From: Gammaproteobacteria bacterium
GTDB taxonomy: Bacteria; Pseudomonadota; Gammaproteobacteria; Eutrophobiales; Eutrophobiaceae
Direction: 5' to 3'
Assembly: GCA_963923955.1 (NCBI GenBank)
Contig: OZ000552.1
Location: forward strand, 870,271-934,270
DNA: 64,000 nucleotides
The position numbers and the translations under genes were made by a program. The stretch's first letter is position 1, and every line of letters begins with the position of its first letter. Below are positions 4,069 to 64,000 of this stretch, in pieces. The notes below the pieces were generated by a model that saw only the letters and a list, made by a program, of their open reading frames with translations, searched no databases and had not been told where the DNA came from.

Positions 4069-4872
4069 TTAGCGCAAGCCCAGTACATCCTGCATGTCAT
4101 ACAGGCCGCTCTGTTTTTGCATCAGCCATCGGGCCGCACGCAGCGCTCCGACAGCAAAGGGCCTGCGGCTGGAGGCCTTGTGGCTGATCTCGATGCGCTC
4201 ACCGGCGGCGGCAAAGAGCACGCTATGCTCGCCAATGATGTCGCCCGCCCGGATGGTTGCAAAGCCGATGGTGTTTTTATCTCGTACTCCGGTTATGCCC
4301 TCTCGGCCATAGACGGCGCACTCTTTCAACTCACGCCCCAGAGTATCGGCGATGATCTCGCCTAGACGGATTGCGGTGCCTGAAGGGGCATCCTGTTTCT
4401 GGTTATGGTGGGCCTCGATGATTTCTATGTCGGCTTCTGCGCCAATGATCCGCGTGGCCAGTTCAGCGAGCTTAAAACAGAGGTTGACGCCGATGCTCAT
4501 GTTCGGCGCACACACAATGGCGATATCGCGGCTGGCGGCCTTAAGCAGATTTTTTTGCGCCTCATCCAAGCCGGTCGTGCCGATGACCATGCGCTTGCCG
4601 GCGGCCCGGCAGCGTTCAACATTGGCGGCGGTTGCCTCTGCCAGCGTGAAATCGATCAGCACATCAAAATCATCAGCTACTGCGGCGATCTCCGATGCGA
4701 TGACCACGCCCCGTTTGCCCAGCCCGGCGGACTCATGGACATCAAGGCCCAACATGGAAGATTGCGGATGTTCTATTGCCGCGCCGATAATGATCCCGTC
4801 GGTATCGTAGCAGACTGCCAGGATGGTGCGGCCCATCCTGCCCGCCGCACCGCACACACCGATTCTTGTCAT
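4069..4872 (-). CDS. dapB: 4-hydroxy-tetrahydrodipicolinate reductase
   Basis: MTRIGVCGAAGRMGR N-terminal NAD(P)-binding motif, EIIEAHHNQKQDAPSGTA motif; start trimmed from the ORF track; sits downstream of dnaJ as in many bacteria. Confidence 0.85.
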   Translation of the reverse strand: MTRIGVCGAAGRMGRTILAVCYDTDGIIIGAAIEHPQSSMLGLDVHESAGLGKRGVVIASEIAAVADDFDVLIDFTLAEATAANVERCRAAGKRMVIGTTGLDEAQKNLLKAASRDIAIVCAPNMSIGVNLCFKLAELATRIIGAEADIEIIEAHHNQKQDAPSGTAIRLGEIIADTLGRELKECAVYGREGITGVRDKNTIGFATIRAGDIIGEHSVLFAAAGERIEISHKASSRRPFAVGALRAARWLMQKQSGLYDMQDVLGLR

Positions 4873-10116: not shown

Positions 10117-10983
10117 ATGAATATGTTCACGACCATAGCACTGATCAGCAATAACGAAGCGACAGAGATCAAGGATACCTTGTCCGCTGTCACCAATTTC
10201 CTGAAATCCCGCAAGATCAAGGTCATCCTGGACGAATTCTGCGCCGAATTGCTGCCGGATGCCGGTTTTCAGGCCGTGAACGCAGAAGAACTGGCCGAGC
10301 ATTGCACCTTAGGCATTGCCATCGGTGGGGACGGCACCATGCTGCGCGCCGCCCACCTGCTGGCCGGTCACGACATCCCCCTGCTCGGCATTAACCGCGG
10401 CCGGCTGGGCTTTCTGGCCGATATTCCTGCAGAAGCCATTCAGGTGCAACTCGGGCAGATTCTGGATGGTGATTATGTGGAAGATGATCGCTTTCAACTG
10501 CATTGCCGGGTTACGCGCGGCGATGCGATGATCTTGGAAAGCGATGCCTTTAATGATGTCGTCATCCAGAAATGGAACATTGCCAGGCTGATCGAACTGG
10601 AAACCTATGTTGACCGCAGCCTGGTGCACAGCCAGCGCGCAGACGGCATGATCGTGGCCTCGCCAACAGGCTCCACTGCGTACGCGCTGTCCGGCGGCGG
10701 CCCGATCATTCATCCCGCTCTGGATGCGCTGGTGCTGGTGCCGATCTGTCCGCATACGCTGAGCAATCGCCCGATTATCATAGACGGCAACAGCCGGGTG
10801 GAGATCGTCGTTGGTACGCCGGAGATCGATCATGCCCGCTTGAGTTGTGATGGCGAGATAAGCTGCGAGCTCGCCACCGGCGATAAGGTCAGCGTCTATA
10901 AAAAAGACAAAAAAATTCGACTGATCCACCCGGCGCATCACGACCATTTCAGCATCCTGCGGGCGAAGTTGAACTGGGGCTGA
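10117..10983 (+). CDS. nadK: NAD(+) kinase
   Basis: GGDGTML and GINRGRLGFL motifs; start trimmed to ATG at 10117; divergent from the hrcA-grpE operon, as nadK neighbours grpE in E. coli. Confidence 0.85.
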   Translation: MNMFTTIALISNNEATEIKDTLSAVTNFLKSRKIKVILDEFCAELLPDAGFQAVNAEELAEHCTLGIAIGGDGTMLRAAHLLAGHDIPLLGINRGRLGFLADIPAEAIQVQLGQILDGDYVEDDRFQLHCRVTRGDAMILESDAFNDVVIQKWNIARLIELETYVDRSLVHSQRADGMIVASPTGSTAYALSGGGPIIHPALDALVLVPICPHTLSNRPIIIDGNSRVEIVVGTPEIDHARLSCDGEISCELATGDKVSVYKKDKKIRLIHPAHHDHFSILRAKLNWG

Positions 10984-11035
10984 TTTTTGAAAATGATCGC
11001 GGCAAGTTGACAACCCGCCTTTCATTTTCCCGCCT

Positions 11036-11064
11036 CCCCGAACTTCGGGATTTCGGTTTTTTCG
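11036..11064 (+). terminator. Weak candidate intrinsic terminator after nadK
   Basis: Short hairpin CCCG-aactt-CGGG followed by a T-rich run atttcggttttttcg. Confidence 0.3.
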
Positions 11065-11153
11065 CTTTGGCCTCAGTCAGGTTGCGGCGGCGGCTTGTGT
11101 TTGATGGCGGACAGCCCGAGCGACAGGTTCGCGGCAGGATTTGATTTTATCGG

Positions 11154-11642
11154 TCATTGAAACGTCTTCCTTACAAACTCCAAATTTTTACATTCCCGGA
11201 GGATTTCCCAATTATTTTTTGTCTGTTGTATTTTTTTGATTGAAATAGATTGCTGTTTTAACTTTTCAATGTAGATGGTCGGCACAAAATAGAAATTGAT
11301 TTCCTTATCACCATTGTCTGTCAGCACCTCAACACCTACCACAACATCGGCTGTTTCCGTGCTTTGGGTGTAGGATTTCACGTCAGATTTATATTGCCGA
11401 TCTATTCCACCTCGCACACCGCCCTTAAATGAAATAGAGCCGGTTTTACTGATGGTTTTCACCTGGACTCTGATCGTATCGTGTTTGCTTCTCTCAACAA
11501 TCAGGTCGTAGGTGGAATGGGGCAGATCGACTTTGGAGGCATTAAACCCCCGTGCCAGTAATGCCGCCAGCAATCTGCTTTCATTGGCAAAGCCCTTGAC
11601 GGAGGCTAGTTTGCCTTTCTCCGTTTCATTTAAGCCCGTCAC
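11154..11642 (-). CDS. Small PD-(D/E)xK nuclease, restriction-endonuclease-like (Mrr/Hjc-like core), putative R subunit of a type II R-M pair
   Basis: Motif E-x2-LAALLARGF ... YDLIVE ... RVQVKT. A GTG start at 11642 overlaps the MTase TGA stop (GTGA); the track ORF starts at a TTG at 11729. AT-rich relative to the flanks. Confidence 0.45.
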   Translation of the reverse strand: MTGLNETEKGKLASVKGFANESRLLAALLARGFNASKVDLPHSTYDLIVERSKHDTIRVQVKTISKTGSISFKGGVRGGIDRQYKSDVKSYTQSTETADVVVGVEVLTDNGDKEINFYFVPTIYIEKLKQQSISIKKIQQTKNNWEILRECKNLEFVRKTFQ

Positions 11643-12898
11643 TTTTTCAAAACCAGAATGTGGTCGTCGTTTATGCGCTCTTTGCGCGGCACCTTGATAA
11701 AATGGTTGATGATTCCTGAAACAAAACAATATTCCACTTTATAGCCGAGCATCTGTGCCGCTTCTTGTAAATATCGCCAATTTTCAAACTGGATTCCGCG
11801 CACAAGATTATTACCAATCACTACAACATAACGGCTGCCCGGTTTCAGCACCCGATAAACCTCGCGCATGTTTTGAATCATATCCTTGATGTATTTTGTG
11901 GCGATAAAAGCCCGTCTGCGGTCTGTTTTATAAATCTGGCTTATAACATCGTCCGCAGTTTTCAAGCCCGTCAAATGAAGGCTTGCATAATCGCGCGCCT
12001 TGACAACCTCCGTGCCCACATGCATGCTTTTAAGCGCTTGCAGTGAGCCGGACGCCAGGCCAAGCCAGTAAATTTCCAACTGATGAGTGCGCGGATAATC
12101 CACGGCGTTTAAGTAGGGCGGGGAAGTCACAGCCAGGTCAATACTCCCATCGCCGATGCCCGCCAAATTGCGCGCATCAGCGTTGGCAGGGATAAGCACT
12201 TCCACCATGTTGCGGGACGCCAACTCTATCATGTTATCAACTTGCGTCTCGGCACGTTTCAGAAATAAACGGATGGCATCGCCTCGTCTTACTTGCTTGC
12301 CGAGTTTTTTGCGGATAACTGTCCGGGTACAATTATTATCCGCTTCACTCACCGAGCGAATCACTGATGAGAAAATAACCAGAAAAAAATCTTTGACTGC
12401 GCGGCTTGCATCCAGCATTTCAATCGTGTTTTTAAGAAAGCCCAACTCCTTTAGCATAAAGGGCTGAAACCAGTTATCGCGGTAGGGGAACTCTGGGGCG
12501 CCTTCCAGATCGGTGGGTTCCTGGTATTGCCCCGACTTGTGTCGGATCGTTGTATGCGCTTGGGTTACTTGCTGTGCTGGCAACGGGGTGGTCTTTACCT
12601 TAGCAATAAAACGGGAAAACGGGTCAACATCAACGCCAATGCTCTTGCGGCCGAGCAGGGATGCTTCAAGATTGGTGGTTGCGCTGCCCATGAATGGGTC
12701 AAGCACAAGCGCGCCGGGCTGTGAATAGCGCTCAATAATCCAGCGCGGCAATTCAGGAAAGAACTTGGCAGGGTATTTATGTATGCCATGTGTAAAGGCT
12801 CTTTGGTCCTTGCTGATAAATAAAAACCTCTTGCCGTTCCTGATAGGCAAGTCGGCCGGAATATTGCCTTCAATTCTGATTGCTTGTGCCGGATTCAA
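11639..12898 (-). CDS. DNA amino-methyltransferase (N6-adenine or N4-cytosine, PF01555-like) with permuted motif order
   Basis: N-terminal AdoMet module HGIHKYPAKF...VLDPFMGSATT (motifs X and I), catalytic motif IV TSPPY about 200 aa downstream, then a VLKPGSRYVVV-type motif. TTG start preceded by AAGGA; AT-rich. Confidence 0.8.
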   Translation of the reverse strand: MNPAQAIRIEGNIPADLPIRNGKRFLFISKDQRAFTHGIHKYPAKFFPELPRWIIERYSQPGALVLDPFMGSATTNLEASLLGRKSIGVDVDPFSRFIAKVKTTPLPAQQVTQAHTTIRHKSGQYQEPTDLEGAPEFPYRDNWFQPFMLKELGFLKNTIEMLDASRAVKDFFLVIFSSVIRSVSEADNNCTRTVIRKKLGKQVRRGDAIRLFLKRAETQVDNMIELASRNMVEVLIPANADARNLAGIGDGSIDLAVTSPPYLNAVDYPRTHQLEIYWLGLASGSLQALKSMHVGTEVVKARDYASLHLTGLKTADDVISQIYKTDRRRAFIATKYIKDMIQNMREVYRVLKPGSRYVVVIGNNLVRGIQFENWRYLQEAAQMLGYKVEYCFVSGIINHFIKVPRKERINDDHILVLKK

Positions 12899-12988
12899 TT
12901 TATTAATTCCTTAAATAGTAATTGCCCTGCCCGCCGTTGCGATGATGCTCGCATTTTGTCGCGGCATTGTGCCGCCTTTCTGTCATGC

Positions 12989-13017
12989 AATGTATGAAAA
13001 AGCGCGCAGTTTTGTCA
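12989..13017 (-). promoter_or_regulatory. Candidate sigma-70 promoter of the R-M cassette, with an adjacent GCGGCA-ttg-TGCCGC inverted repeat (12961-12975)
   Basis: mRNA-sense TTGACA-N17-ATACAT; a 6 bp inverted repeat lies just downstream of the -10. Confidence 0.3.
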
Positions 13018-13145
13018 AGACGTAAGGCCGCTTAAGGCTTCTGCAACGGCAAATGGAGGTTTTCAAGGTTTCATATTTTCCTTATATAATGCCTTGACCT
13101 TTGCGTCCCTGAAAATCCGACCCTAAATTTGGCAAAACACCAAGC

Positions 13146-14813
13146 ATGCTAAAGCAGTTATCGATACGAAATTTCGCGGTTATTGAGGAACTTGAGTTGC
13201 ACCTTGCCGCCGGCATGACGGTCTTGACCGGGGAGACCGGCGCCGGCAAATCCATCCTGATCGATGCGCTCGGCCTGGTTCTTGGTGACCGGGCGGACAG
13301 TGCCGTTATTCGCAGCGATGCCAAACAGACCGAGATCACGGCGATATTCCACATAGCAGGAAACAAACCCGTTGCCGATCTGTTAGAAGATCAGGCAATC
13401 GACGTGGAGGAGGACGAGCTCATTATCCGGCGCATCGTCAGCCGCGATGGCCGCTCACGCGGCTACGTAAACAGCGCACCGGTGGCCGCCCAACTCTTGC
13501 GTGAGATTGGAGAGCATCTGGTTGATATCCACGGCCAACACGCCCATCAATCCCTGCTAAAACGCGATGTGCAGCGCGGCCTGTTGGATGCATACGGGAA
13601 CTACGCCGGGCAATTAAGCGCAGTCTTTAGGCCTTACCAGGATTGGCATAGCGCAAGCGCTGAATTAGACACACTGCCTGCTAATGAAAAGGAACATCGT
13701 GCGCAGCTGAGTTTACTGGAATATCAGGTACAGGAACTTGAGCAACTCGCCCCGCAGGCCGATGAGTACCGGGCACTGGAAGCGGAATACAAACGCCTGG
13801 ACAATGCCGGCCGCCTGCTGGGCACGGCACAGGCCGCATTGAATACGCTGAGCGAGGAGGAGCACTCCCTGGATGCACGCTTAAATTATGTCCTGAAGGA
13901 TCTTTCTGCCTTGCAGAAGATCGATCCGGAACTAAGCGCAGCCGGCGAGTTGCTGGAGACCGCCCGCATACAGCTGAGCGAGGCGAGTGAGGAGCTGCGT
14001 CATTACCGGGAGAAGGTCGAGCCGCAACCTGAGCGTCTGGCAGAGGTGGAAAAGCGCTTACATAACCTGCATGACATTGCGCGCAAACACCATATCCAGC
14101 CACAGCAACTACCCGAACAGCTACAGGAGCTCAGCGCACAATTACGTGACTTGCTAAACAGCCGGAGGCGTCTTGCTGAACTCAAAGACCGGCAGGCAAA
14201 TGCCCTGGATGACTATACAAGGGCGGCTGAAGACTTGCACAACAGCCGCACCGGGGCGGCGGATAAAATGGCGCAGGCAATCACTAAGCAGCTGCAAACG
14301 CTGGGCATGCCGGACGGGCGCTTCGAGATACAAGTGACAAGACAGAACGGGCACAAGCCGCAGGCCCACGGCGATGACCAGATCGAATTCCTGGTAAGCA
14401 CCAACGCCGGACAGGCACCAAAGCCATTGCGCAAGGTCGCCTCCGGCGGCGAGCTTTCCCGCATCAGCCTGGCCATACAGGTCATCGCCAGCCACGACAA
14501 GGGCATCCCGGCCATGGTCTTTGATGAAGTGGATGCCGGCATAGGCGGCGGCGTTGCGGAGATCGTGGGGAGGCTGCTGCACCGGCTCGCTGAACAGCGG
14601 CAGGTCTTATGCGTCACGCACTTGGCCCAGGTTGCCTCCCAGGCCGACCAACACCTACAGGTGGGAAAATCTTCTGATAAAAAGACGACACAGACTCAAG
14701 TGCTTGCATTGGATGAGTCTGATCGCATTGAAGAGATCGCCAGGATGCTGGGCGGCATAAACATATCGAAACAGAGCCTGGAACATGCAAAGGAAATGTT
14801 GAAGCTGCACTGA
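13146..14813 (+). CDS. recN: DNA repair protein RecN
   Basis: MLKQLSIRNFAVIEELELHLAAGMTVLTGETGAGKSILIDAL, long coiled coil, C-terminal signature SGGELSRISLA and DEVDAGIGG. Confidence 0.9.
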   Translation: MLKQLSIRNFAVIEELELHLAAGMTVLTGETGAGKSILIDALGLVLGDRADSAVIRSDAKQTEITAIFHIAGNKPVADLLEDQAIDVEEDELIIRRIVSRDGRSRGYVNSAPVAAQLLREIGEHLVDIHGQHAHQSLLKRDVQRGLLDAYGNYAGQLSAVFRPYQDWHSASAELDTLPANEKEHRAQLSLLEYQVQELEQLAPQADEYRALEAEYKRLDNAGRLLGTAQAALNTLSEEEHSLDARLNYVLKDLSALQKIDPELSAAGELLETARIQLSEASEELRHYREKVEPQPERLAEVEKRLHNLHDIARKHHIQPQQLPEQLQELSAQLRDLLNSRRRLAELKDRQANALDDYTRAAEDLHNSRTGAADKMAQAITKQLQTLGMPDGRFEIQVTRQNGHKPQAHGDDQIEFLVSTNAGQAPKPLRKVASGGELSRISLAIQVIASHDKGIPAMVFDEVDAGIGGGVAEIVGRLLHRLAEQRQVLCVTHLAQVASQADQHLQVGKSSDKKTTQTQVLALDESDRIEEIARMLGGINISKQSLEHAKEMLKLH

Positions 14814-20744: not shown

Positions 20745-21105
20745 GGGGGCGTGTCTGGCTTCGACGCGAGTATCAAAACCCAAGGGGCATGCCGAGGTGC
20801 AGACTACCTCGTTAATCCATCTGCAAACTCATAGTTGCCAACGACGACAACTACGCACTCGCCGCTTAAATCCCGGTAGGGTGCCGTCTGACCGCAGTGT
20901 GCTTGTACGCGTGGAGCCAGGCGTCGACTCATACAAGCTCGCGATGAAACCTGTCCGGGGTGGATTCGTTAAAGCGTAACGGAATCGTTGTTTGTCTTCC
21001 CTGCCGTTCGGGTAGCACACAATTAAATAAATTGAGCCGGCTAAGCATGTAGAACCGAAGGCAGAGAGCTTGCGGACGCGGGTTCAACTCCCGCCGCCTC
21101 CACCA
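20745..21105 (+). ncRNA. ssrA: Transfer-messenger RNA (tmRNA, ssrA), tag peptide ANDDNYALAA
   Basis: 5' GGGGGCGUGUCUGGCUUCGACG..., 3' ...GGACGCGGGUUCAACUCCCGCCGCCUCCACCA, G3:U acceptor pair, tag ORF GCCAACGACGACAACTACGCACTCGCCGCTTAA; immediately downstream of smpB. Confidence 0.92.
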
Positions 21106-60980: not shown

Positions 60981-62171
60981 ATGCGGAAAAAACTGATCAA
61001 CGCAGCGGCGTTTGCCGCGCTACTGGCGGCCGCGGCGGGGGCGAGCGAGCCGCAGGTGCTCGCAGAATGGAACAGCCTGCCATATATTGTCAAGGATGCG
61101 GACACTAGGGCGGCATGGGAAGGCAGCGAGATCTTCGGCAAGGCCCTGCTGCAGGGAGTCAAGGTCGATAGCGCCGGCAATATCTATGTCTCAACCGCCC
61201 GCTGGGGCGGGGCTGCGATCCCTGCAACGCTGTCTAAACTGGTGCAGCATGGCGACACCTGGGCCTTGCAAGCCTGGCCCAATGAGGCGATGAACGACAT
61301 CGCGAATGCTACGGGGCTCAAGGCCGTGCTGGGTTTTGAGATCGACCGCAGCGATGTGATGTGGATCCTGGATCAGGGACATGTGGCGGGCGCGCCCTTT
61401 GCCGCCGGCGATGCCAAGCTGGTGCTCTGGGACATCAAGGCGAGCAAGGAAATCCAGCGCTATGTCTTCAGCGCGGCCGAGGCTGACCCCGAGTGTTCCT
61501 TTCTCAATGACCTTGCCGTTGATAATGACAGCGGCTTTGCCTACATCACCGACAGCGGCATCTTTTGCGACCCGCTGCATGGCGGGCTGATCGTCTATGA
61601 CCGCAACACCAAATCGGCACGGCGCATTCTTAATCAGCATCGCTTCACCAATGACGAGCCGAACTTCTTCTTCAACATCGACAACCGACCGGTGCTGAAA
61701 GATGGCGGCATGCGCACCGGTGCCGATGGTATTGCGTTGTCGGGTGACAAGGAAACGCTCTATTGGACAAACCTGACCGGCAACCATCTCTACAGCCTGC
61801 CGACCGAGCTCCTGCGCGACTTTAACAGCAGTGAAATCGTGCTCGAGAACGCGGTGGAGATCGCTGCGGTGCTGCCGTCGAACACGGACGGGATGACCGC
61901 AGATAACGCCGGCAACATCTACATGACCGCGCTGTCGCTGGATGGGATCATGAAATTTGATGAGGGCACCCGCCGCGTCAGCCGCTTTGTCCATCACCCG
62001 GACATGAACTGGCCGGATACGCTGGCCTGGGGGCCGGATGGCGCGATGTATGCTGTTTCCAATCACTTAAACGTCTGGGTTGACGGCGACATGGATTTCG
62101 ACAATCCCGAGATCCCGAATTTCCGCATCTGGAAGATACCGGGCGTTGGTCAGAGCTATACCCGCGAATAG
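60981..62171 (+). CDS. Secreted MRJP/yellow-family protein (six-bladed beta-propeller)
   Basis: Signal peptide; yellow/MRJP-like blocks: SFLNDLAVDNDSGFAYITDSG, GLIVYDRNT, TLYWTNLTGNHLYSLPTELL, GNIYMTALSLDGIMKFDEG; 396 aa. Confidence 0.65.
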   Translation: MRKKLINAAAFAALLAAAAGASEPQVLAEWNSLPYIVKDADTRAAWEGSEIFGKALLQGVKVDSAGNIYVSTARWGGAAIPATLSKLVQHGDTWALQAWPNEAMNDIANATGLKAVLGFEIDRSDVMWILDQGHVAGAPFAAGDAKLVLWDIKASKEIQRYVFSAAEADPECSFLNDLAVDNDSGFAYITDSGIFCDPLHGGLIVYDRNTKSARRILNQHRFTNDEPNFFFNIDNRPVLKDGGMRTGADGIALSGDKETLYWTNLTGNHLYSLPTELLRDFNSSEIVLENAVEIAAVLPSNTDGMTADNAGNIYMTALSLDGIMKFDEGTRRVSRFVHHPDMNWPDTLAWGPDGAMYAVSNHLNVWVDGDMDFDNPEIPNFRIWKIPGVGQSYTRE

Positions 62172-62217
62172 GCTTTCCGAGACTGGCACGGCAATCGGGC
62201 GTTGATGTCGCTTGCTC

Positions 62218-62400
62218 AGCGCAAACATCCCTAGCGAGGGCAGGAATCTAGGTAGAATGCACATTTTAAGCCATCTCTCCGCCTAACCCGTCATTCCTGC
62301 GTAAGAACGTCACCCCTGCCTACGAGCAGGTGCAGGAATCCAAGCAAAGGGCACCAGTTTTAAGCCTTCTTTTCAAGTGCAAAATGCCTGTGTTCTTGAA
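62218..62400. repeat. Two further copies (one full, one partial) of the dRS3-like palindromic repeat
   Basis: TTTTAAGCCATCTCTCCGCCTAACCCGTCATTCCTGCGTAAGAACGTCACCCCTGCCTACGAGCAGGTGCAGGAATCCAAGCAAAGGGC, then TTTTAAGCCTTCTTTTCA... Confidence 0.7.
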
Positions 62401-62441
62401 CACCGGGAACACCAGCTCTGTCGCAGGATTGTCAAACAGGG

Positions 62442-63227
62442 TCATTTGTACCTGGAAACTGCGAAATTCACGAAGGCGCTGCACACGACGATCATGAAAT
62501 GTGCGTCAGATTCATCGACTGCAATATTGTCATCCAAAGACGCATGACGAATGCCGCCCTCATCCGAAGCGTATCCGTAAAGCTTGTTGAGACCGTCTCT
62601 AAAAGCAGCATGCATCTGCTTTTGTTGATCCAGGATTCCAAGGGCTTCCCCTAATGTCGCCTTGTCTTTTCCCGAGATTACCTTTGCAATGCTCTCGACC
62701 GCAGAAATTGCTTCCTTGATCGCATTCGAATAATCCGCATTGGGCTTTTGTGAGAACGCTTCCAATGCCCGTCGAATGTGTTCTCTAGCCCCGGAAAATT
62801 TATCATCCAAGTTTGCAGCGGCCGATACAGCCCCAATTTCTGTTGCATCGGAGATCGGCACCAGTCTTCTATTGATAAACCGGTACGCTGATTTTTCCTC
62901 TTCAAGTATCCAGTTGAACGGTTTGGCCATCGATGGATCGATTTTTTTAACAATAAATTCCACGAAGTTATAAATCTCGTGCCATTCCAATTCAAAATAT
63001 CTTTCCCTCAAGTTTGAGTTTTTTTGATATATTTTTATGCCTGTTTCATCATCAGGAATTTTGAAAAACTCATCAAAAGTACGATGGTATCTGACGCTAA
63101 TGAATTTGCCGGAAAATACCACAGCATTTATTTTATTCCACAATCGATTTCTAAGTGCATCATCAATGCTGCCAGACTGATAAAGCCTTTGGGGAACTGT
63201 TACTCCAATCCGATCAGAAAATCTCAT
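62442..63227 (-). CDS. Possible Abi/defence-associated protein embedded downstream of hsdS (weak AbiJ N-terminal-family resemblance, tentative)
   Basis: 261 aa from MRFSDRIG (GGAGAG RBS 7 nt upstream of ATG 63227); AT-rich; 65 bp after the hsdS stop; no nucleotide-binding or MTase motif; C-terminal GGIRHASLDD segment. Confidence 0.4.
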   Translation of the reverse strand: MRFSDRIGVTVPQRLYQSGSIDDALRNRLWNKINAVVFSGKFISVRYHRTFDEFFKIPDDETGIKIYQKNSNLRERYFELEWHEIYNFVEFIVKKIDPSMAKPFNWILEEEKSAYRFINRRLVPISDATEIGAVSAAANLDDKFSGAREHIRRALEAFSQKPNADYSNAIKEAISAVESIAKVISGKDKATLGEALGILDQQKQMHAAFRDGLNKLYGYASDEGGIRHASLDDNIAVDESDAHFMIVVCSAFVNFAVSRYK

Positions 63228-63292
63228 TGCTCTCTCCATTTTAGAATTTCACGGGGCATTGTTGCCGGTGTGTCTTGCATCGCGATATTATT

Positions 63293-64000
63293 TTACAGCG
63301 CCTTATCAAGGGCTTTATTTGTCTCATGTGCAAAGGCTTCGCGCAAGACGGCTTGCATCAGGGCATCGGCGTGGGTTTGGTTTTGGGTGATTTGAGTTTG
63401 CAGTTTATCGCAGAGGGCGAGAAGTTTTTCGGCTTTGGCAACAATGGTTTGTTGTTCTTGGAGAGGAGCAAGCGGGATCAACTGTGAATATACTTCATCT
63501 CGGTTCAAGCCGGGTTTTATTCCTTTGCCTAATTGACTGAGATTCAACGATTTCAATAAATAGGTTAGATAAGCAAACCCAAAAAGGTGCGACTCCTCAA
63601 TGTAATAGGCTACATCAGTAGTCCAAGAACCCCCTTCTGCAATTTGTAATGCGCCGGCAGAGCCTTTGCGTCCAACGATGATTGAACGTTTATCGGTTAA
63701 TCTAGAGGAGTGAAAACCAACTACTCCGTTTGAACCATAAACAGGATATTCCCCCACTGGTTTTGTTTGGCTCTTCGGAAGAGCCTTCCCATAGTGCATC
63801 AAGATAATTTCACCCAGTCGGCACCAGGCCCAGCCCTTGGGTAGTGCGAAGGGTTTTTCTTTTTCGTTTATTGGTGGCAGGGGTTTTTGTTGTTTGATTT
63901 TTTTGGCTTTGGTCAGTTTGGCTTTTTCGGCCTTGATGCGCGCTAAGAGTGCGGCGGCGGGTTCTGCACTCGGGTTGGCGCTGCGCCAGGCAATGGTCAG
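63293..64000 (-). CDS. hsdS: Type I restriction-modification specificity subunit HsdS (3' part; the 5' end lies beyond the window)
   Basis: TRD start LPKGWAWCRLGEIILMHYGKALP ... NGVVGFHS ... conserved repeat PLAPLQEQQTIVAKAEKLLALCDKL. The frame stays open to position 64000 and reads ...ARIKAEKAKLTKAKK..., the central conserved region. Confidence 0.8.
   Translation of the reverse strand: MTIAWRSANPSAEPAAALLARIKAEKAKLTKAKKIKQQKPLPPINEKEKPFALPKGWAWCRLGEIILMHYGKALPKSQTKPVGEYPVYGSNGVVGFHSSRLTDKRSIIVGRKGSAGALQIAEGGSWTTDVAYYIEESHLFGFAYLTYLLKSLNLSQLGKGIKPGLNRDEVYSQLIPLAPLQEQQTIVAKAEKLLALCDKLQTQITQNQTHADALMQAVLREAFAHETNKALDKAL

Follow-up and report, generated by a model that had tools for sequence, protein, structure and literature searches.

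A probable two-gene restriction-modification cassette with a nuclease of predicted I-Ssp6803I fold at the nadK-recN junction of a gammaproteobacterial genome

Between nadK and recN in the window, i.e., the whole stretch of 64,000 nucleotides of gammaproteobacterial DNA analysed here, lies a cassette (10984-13145) that takes up the entire gap from the nadK stop (10983) to the recN start (13146). The gene order around it is grpE, hrcA, nadK, the cassette, recN, fur, bamE, and further on rnfH, ratA, smpB, and ssrA, with other genes in between. An initial annotation of this DNA had described an E. coli-like backbone, which is right overall, except that hrcA and fur interrupt the order it quoted. 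It had also placed a low-GC segment of ~2.1 kb exactly in the nadK-recN gap, and its coordinates agree with ours. The features of the locus are the following.

10117..10983, plus strand: nadK (NAD kinase), left flank; Pfam NAD_kinase and NAD_kinase_C; 70% identity to nadK of the closest genome found (L006)
10984..11153, no strand assigned: spacer of 170 bp, from nadK stop to nuclease stop; weak hairpins resembling terminators, 11037-11049 and 11078-11097
11154..11642, minus strand: PD-(D/E)xK nuclease, 162 aa, putative restriction endonuclease; GTG start in the methyltransferase stop (GTGA)
11639..12898, minus strand: DNA methyltransferase (MTase), 419 aa, TTG start at 12898; Pfam N6_N4_Mtase, 7.8e-20; PADLOC MTase_II PDLC03362, 1.2e-71
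12908..12912, minus strand: Shine-Dalgarno-like AAGGA, 9 nt before the TTG of the MTase, read from the sequence
12961..12975, no strand assigned: inverted repeat GCGGCA-N3-TGCCGC between candidate promoter and MTase start; not conserved at other loci
12989..13018, minus strand: putative sigma-70 promoter for the M-R operon; boxes TTGACA and ATACAT/TACATT, 17-18 nt apart; 10/12 matches
13146..14813, plus strand: recN, right flank; Pfam SMC_N; 53% identity to L006 recN

The longest nadK ORF opens at TTG 10063, and the ATG at 10117 used here agrees with the L006 homologue. In base composition the cassette is set apart from its surroundings: with a GC content of 0.475 it ranks last among 619 sliding windows of 2.16 kb (mean over the window 0.562, sd 0.031), and GC3 is 0.485 in the nuclease gene and 0.545 in the MTase gene against 0.63-0.71 in six neighbouring genes, so that both measures lie below the flanks and do not equal them. 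L006, in which RecN, NadK, HrcA, and Fur are 53%, 70%, 70%, and 83% identical to their counterparts here, keeps the order hrcA-nadK-recN-fur with a nadK-recN gap of about 17 bp, and L008, a genome from the Kangiellaceae, has about 33 bp there; neither junction holds a cassette, and L006 has its own copy at another place, among glycosyltransferase genes. Because the junction is this short in both relatives and GC and GC3 are low, the 2.16 kb gap is, as judged from the sequence, an insertion that was acquired horizontally. Comparison of the borders gave no convincing direct or inverted repeats at the cassette ends, in keeping with the earlier remark that no direct repeats were obvious there; comparison with other copies revealed no conserved non-coding cassette end, and the spacer at 10984..11153 has no similarity to cassette flanks at other loci.

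The MTase and nuclease genes are on the same strand and overlap by 4 bp (GTGA), the nuclease GTG at 11642 lying in the MTase stop just as had been annotated; the TTG start of the 419 aa amino-MTase and its AAGGA ribosome-binding site are likewise in the sequence. The promoter-like boxes, TTGACA at 13018-13013 followed after 17 nt by ATACAT at 12995-12990, had been attributed to the nuclease as its own promoter. The sequence is there, but it is sited upstream of the MTase gene, and for that reason the candidate promoter would serve the whole operon rather than the nuclease alone. Please note that the region is no richer in hairpins and promoter-like sites than shuffled sequence, so that the candidate promoter, its assignment to the operon, and the hairpins are plausible by position only. 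The inverted repeat said to follow the promoter was found at 12975-12961. As for a controller (C) protein gene, whose absence had been noted, the cassette spacers hold no ORF of at least 50 aa and gave no helix-turn-helix (HTH) match in Pfam.

The MTase is matched over its full length by PADLOC MTase_II, a model of type II MTases derived from REBASE, and it also matches a phage DNA-MTase PHROG (8.4e-68). The Pfam N6_N4_Mtase match is in two pieces, with the N-terminal part of the protein aligned to the C-terminal part of the model. Motifs X and I (YPAKFF.../DPFMGSATT) are at residues 42-75 and motif IV (TSPPY) at residues 258-262; a stretch of about 190 aa, the target-recognition insert, separates DPFMGSATT from TSPPY, and both of these motifs are invariant across the MTase homologues in our family alignments. 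The motif order, i.e., X-I, target-recognition domain (TRD), IV, is that of the alpha class by sequence. The AF2 model of the MTase (pLDDT 86.7), searched against PDB with Foldseek, retrieved generic Rossmann-fold methyltransferases only (Trm11, NNMT; TM about 0.3), and no solved DNA MTase of the same topology was found in PDB.

From Deinococcus radiodurans comes a distant homologue of the MTase, M.DraR1 (24.9% identity, E 3e-15, in an alignment covering residues 61-410), whose target is CCGCGG; the distance is too great for this specificity to be transferred. M.DraR1 has been shown by experiment to be an alpha-class N4-cytosine MTase, and it resembles the window MTase in its N-terminal FxGxG, its central target-recognition domain, its SPPY towards the C-terminus, and its similar length (PMC6712171). 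Judging from TSPPY as its catalytic motif and from an order of motifs that it has in common with M.DraR1, the product of the window MTase is probably N4-methylcytosine. The BspHI system (pBspH1, Acinetobacter sp. NEB 394) has an MTase that is distantly homologous too, at about 27% identity and with its motifs in this order; its catalytic motif is SHPPY where the window MTase has TSPPY, so base specificity is not uniform across the wider MTase family.

The small ORF (11154-11729, minus strand), which the initial annotation had given as a PD-(D/E)xK nuclease-like protein of 162-191 aa, is present; it is 191 aa long if read from its TTG and 162 aa from the GTG at 11642. We take the 162 aa form to be the real one, since the homologues align from the GTG and NCBI/ENA has an identical protein of 162 aa, recorded on the same contig as a protein identical to the 419 aa MTase. 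An exact-match look-up with the two window proteins themselves returned no record. Against Pfam PF11645 (PDDEXK_5) the nuclease aligns with part of the model only and reaches 26.1 bits, which is precisely the gathering score, and many of its homologues and remoter relatives score above the window protein against this family. A PDB sequence search with the single nuclease sequence returned no match, and none of the PADLOC models, including those for restriction endonucleases (REase), matched it.

In an alignment of 32 homologues the invariant residues are E21, R23, D46, R58, Q60, and K62, of which we propose E21, D46, Q60, and K62 as catalytic. The AF2 model (pLDDT 78), on which the attribution of the fold relies, places E21 in a helix (6-30), D46 at the start of a strand (47-52), and Q60-V-K62 within another strand (55-63), an arrangement that, as modelled, is canonical for PD-(D/E)xK enzymes except that Q replaces E. 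The predicted fold is that of I-Ssp6803I, a homing endonuclease that is closer in the model comparison than any solved conventional type II enzyme. The nuclease had been called very small for a type II enzyme; the protein is small indeed, but not unprecedented, since R.PvuII, a target in the fold search, has 157 aa against 162 aa here. The window nuclease resembles I-Ssp6803I far more than it does PvuII.

I-Ssp6803I (PDB 2ost), the founder of PF11645, is the PD-(D/E)xK homing endonuclease from the group I intron in tRNA-fMet of Synechocystis. The window nuclease is only 16% identical to it, and a profile search of PDB sequences with the nuclease family was blind to 2ost, giving chance-level matches only (E at least 0.48). 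I-Ssp6803I is intron-encoded, whereas the window nuclease is free-standing, is predicted to be co-transcribed with an MTase, and belongs to a family found at many genomic sites. As a tetramer, I-Ssp6803I binds a target that is long and pseudo-palindromic (PMC3384342). No other member of PF11645 is characterised, and I-Ssp6803I is an intron homing endonuclease and not a restriction enzyme (PMC3424549). We counted this against a restriction-modification (R-M) reading of the cassette, together with the lack of a PADLOC REase match and of a PDB sequence match for the nuclease, the PF11645 score at threshold, the chance-level promoter and hairpin signals, and one nuclease homologue without an MTase (L035).

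Such a fold could suggest a selfish element of the homing type, in which the nuclease would cut a long site at a cassette-free nadK-recN junction, or at some other fixed site, and the element would spread by repair-mediated copying while the MTase shields the occupied alleles. The distribution of the copies makes this very unlikely. The genes next to the cassette differ in every genome examined, i.e., the insertion sites are unrelated and not one fixed target. DNA similarity to the other copies is confined to about 11158-12913, which is the two ORFs; it ends where the ORFs end, the spacers are without counterpart, and the flanks have nothing in common between loci. An Rfam scan of 10500-13600 recovered no intron and no other RNA family, and the nuclease follows the MTase gene in an operon. 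There is no copy in mobile-element collections, with zero nuclease homologues in 72,556 plasmids, 50,697 phage records, and the viral contig set. A homing endonuclease, moreover, has no need of an MTase.

The nuclease family is rare, with 181 matches at E <=0.001 among 1.84 billion representatives of 50%-identity clusters, and all the named homologues are annotated as 'hypothetical protein'. The named hosts of the cassette include Bacteroidota, Gemmatimonadota, Flavobacteriaceae, and Gammaproteobacteria. In 34 of the 35 other loci an alpha-type MTase with TSPPY adjoins the nuclease homologue, nearly always directly upstream and on the same strand, with the 4 bp overlap retained in the closer subfamily. 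At one of these loci (L019) the two genes are divergent and an IS110 element sits in between. The sole exception to the pairing, L035, is an N-terminally truncated nuclease ORF on a contig of 1.85 kb, with no MTase within 1.3 kb upstream of it. The two proteins also seem to have diverged together: across 17 loci their identities to the window MTase and the window nuclease are correlated (r = 0.79, uncorrected for shared ancestry).

R-M systems usually decay by loss of the nuclease with the MTase kept. We examined three MTase homologues whose contigs were absent among the listed nuclease matches (L042, L043, and L044). In each of them the MTase is full length and the nuclease gene is broken, by an insertion of 1 nt or by an internal deletion plus frameshift, and none of these lesions is within a long homopolymer. 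The nuclease is thus almost never found without the MTase, and the MTase is sometimes found with a dead nuclease, which is the asymmetry expected if the nuclease is lethal without methylation. The linkage, the correlated divergence, and the three loci with intact MTase and broken nuclease strengthen the type II R-M reading that had been put forward from the window sequence, and we consider it quite probable that the cassette is a horizontally acquired type II R-M module of two genes without a controller protein.

The strict linkage also bears on the possibility that the MTase accompanies a nuclease with no role in restriction, e.g., an Hjc-like resolvase, or a nuclease that repairs lesions arising from methylation in the way Vsr stands beside Dcm. 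Such a nuclease would leave its strict, mobile linkage to the MTase unexplained, and its fold match is poorer than that of I-Ssp6803I; the archaeal Hjc-type Holliday junction resolvases are not the closest relatives in fold or sequence, and the context is not that of stand-alone repair. We regard this explanation as quite unlikely. Extremely unlikely, too, is a type IV-like nuclease that depends on modification and shares the cassette with an MTase of another specificity. The similarity to such enzymes is far below that to I-Ssp6803I and none is seen in sequence; for a methyl-dependent nuclease, moreover, it would be self-destructive or pointless to be translationally coupled to an MTase within an operon and to keep this type of MTase as its partner across loci.

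Decay at other loci raises the question of whether the window copy is itself a silent or inactive relic, with ORFs that are intact yet unexpressed or catalytically dead. The weak promoter evidence and the decayed copies at L042-L044 speak for such a state; against it, the window MTase and nuclease are both full length and retain every residue that is invariant in their families, and a relic is to our mind unlikely.

If the cassette is the R-M module that we favor, it would work as one operon, MTase first and then nuclease, with transcription probably starting from TTGACA-N17-ATACAT (13018-12990). The MTase, translated from the TTG with the AAGGA ribosome-binding site, would mark a short specific sequence on the host chromosome, most likely as N4-methylcytosine, and the nuclease, probably a homodimer or a homotetramer, would cut unmethylated copies of this sequence, e.g., in phage or other incoming DNA. 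Since the nuclease GTG overlaps the MTase stop and has no ribosome-binding site of its own, its translation may be dependent on that of the MTase and lag behind it, so that the nuclease would be made at a lower level and later. This lag would be the protective delay that takes the place of a C-protein switch. A recognition site was sought by palindrome avoidance in 62 kb of the host and in 132 kb pooled from ten cassette-bearing genomes; no candidate stood out, and the avoidance seen was of a generic kind (CTAG, CGCG, AAGCTT, CGATCG, and others).

The cassette differs from the known systems that come nearest to it in one part or another. M.PvuII is an N4-cytosine MTase of the beta class, with the catalytic motif first, and the PvuII system has a C protein; the cassette MTase is of the alpha-class order and no C gene accompanies it. 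In the BspHI system, the MTase on pBspH1 is partnered by a convergent protein of 381 aa and an HTH regulator, whereas the cassette is without a controller. The partner of M.DraR1, R.DraR1, is a GIY-YIG enzyme encoded ten ORFs away (PMC10855626), in contrast to the adjacent PD-(D/E)xK protein that the window MTase has as its partner.

As such, an R-M cassette at nadK-recN is most likely ordinary, and the I-Ssp6803I-like fold of the nuclease would be its sole unusual point; R-M cassettes are common in conserved gene junctions, and the diversity of restriction endonucleases is notorious. A mildly new point is that the nuclease family has no name in the sources searched (REBASE, which possibly lists such genes as putative, was not among them). 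Mildly new is also that the family escapes the PADLOC defence models and that, among free-standing proteins linked to an MTase, it stands closest by structure to a homing endonuclease. In the searchable literature, we found no paper tying PF11645 or I-Ssp6803I-like proteins to restriction-modification.

The nuclease might share with I-Ssp6803I a tetrameric state and the recognition of long or degenerate sites, here paired with alpha-class N4-cytosine MTases. It may even found a family of restriction endonucleases, as a free-standing, MTase-linked counterpart of I-Ssp6803I and an evolutionary bridge between homing and restriction, a proposal that we hold to be possible though somewhat short of probable. 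If the restriction role is confirmed, one small PD-(D/E)xK scaffold would serve both selfish homing and restriction, and the enzyme could provide a new specificity in compact form, with a possible sensitivity to 4mC. For the host, the insertion has a further side. A LexA box was searched for upstream of recN and not found. The insertion parts recN from nadK, and it could have altered the transcription of recN in this lineage.

In three metagenomic genomes the methyltransferase (MTase) orthologous to that of the cassette is intact and the nuclease gene is disrupted, at the following positions of the respective loci:

4278-4750 (L042), disrupted nuclease region, internal deletion with frameshift
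4326-4818 (L043), disrupted nuclease region, insertion of 1 nt
4314-4794 (L044), disrupted nuclease region, internal deletion with frameshift

At nine loci (L024, L025, L027, L028, L031, L034, L036, L037 and L040), the nuclease homologues share about 50% identity with the window nuclease, and their partners belong to a second lineage of MTases, i.e., alpha-type enzymes with a TSPPY motif that share only 21-26% identity with the window MTase. Either the partner has been exchanged or the MTase has diverged much faster than the nuclease.

At locus L014 (40-5483), the MTase gene comes immediately after a transposase gene of the IS1595 family (Pfam DDE_Tnp_IS1595, 6.8e-19), and the whole transposase-MTase-nuclease unit is duplicated in tandem, the nuclease of the first copy being truncated; this arrangement could represent a route of mobilisation or could be an artefact of assembly. 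Locus L019 (1501-6984) has its MTase and nuclease genes pointing away from each other on either side of a split IS110 transposase, and a conjugative-element context is suggested because the gene for a TraG/TraD-type coupling protein of type IV secretion adjoins the locus.

More distant relatives were found for both proteins. Six remote relatives of the nuclease (P0311, P0321, P0323, P0329, P0336 and P0347) are about 300-475 amino acids long and carry the PF11645-like domain at the C-terminal end, their N-terminal 150-320 amino acids being without a Pfam match. For the MTase, a distant homologue is encoded on plasmid pBspH1 of Acinetobacter sp. NEB 394 (locus L046, 2884-5485), with SHPPY as motif IV in contrast to TSPPY in the window MTase; its gene is convergent to those of a 381-amino acid hypothetical protein and an HTH regulator. 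As the name of the plasmid suggests, this locus is presumably the BspHI system.

With the cassette inserted, recN now lies 2.16 kb from nadK and 247 bp from the start of the divergent MTase gene. Within this latter interval (window 12899-13145), neither a plus-strand sigma-70-like promoter nor a LexA-box-like CTGT-N8-ACAG element was found upstream of recN.

A second low-GC stretch (GC about 0.48) occupies window positions 61600-64000 and contains two ORFs:

62442-63239, minus strand, ORF of 265 amino acids, unknown function
63293-63802, minus strand, ORF of 169 amino acids, similar by eye to a type I HsdS specificity subunit (C-terminal half)

The stretch may be a further locus for restriction or defence, running past the window end. 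Elsewhere in the window, one further gene was located directly downstream of smpB:

20745-21105, tmRNA gene, tag peptide ANDDNYALAA
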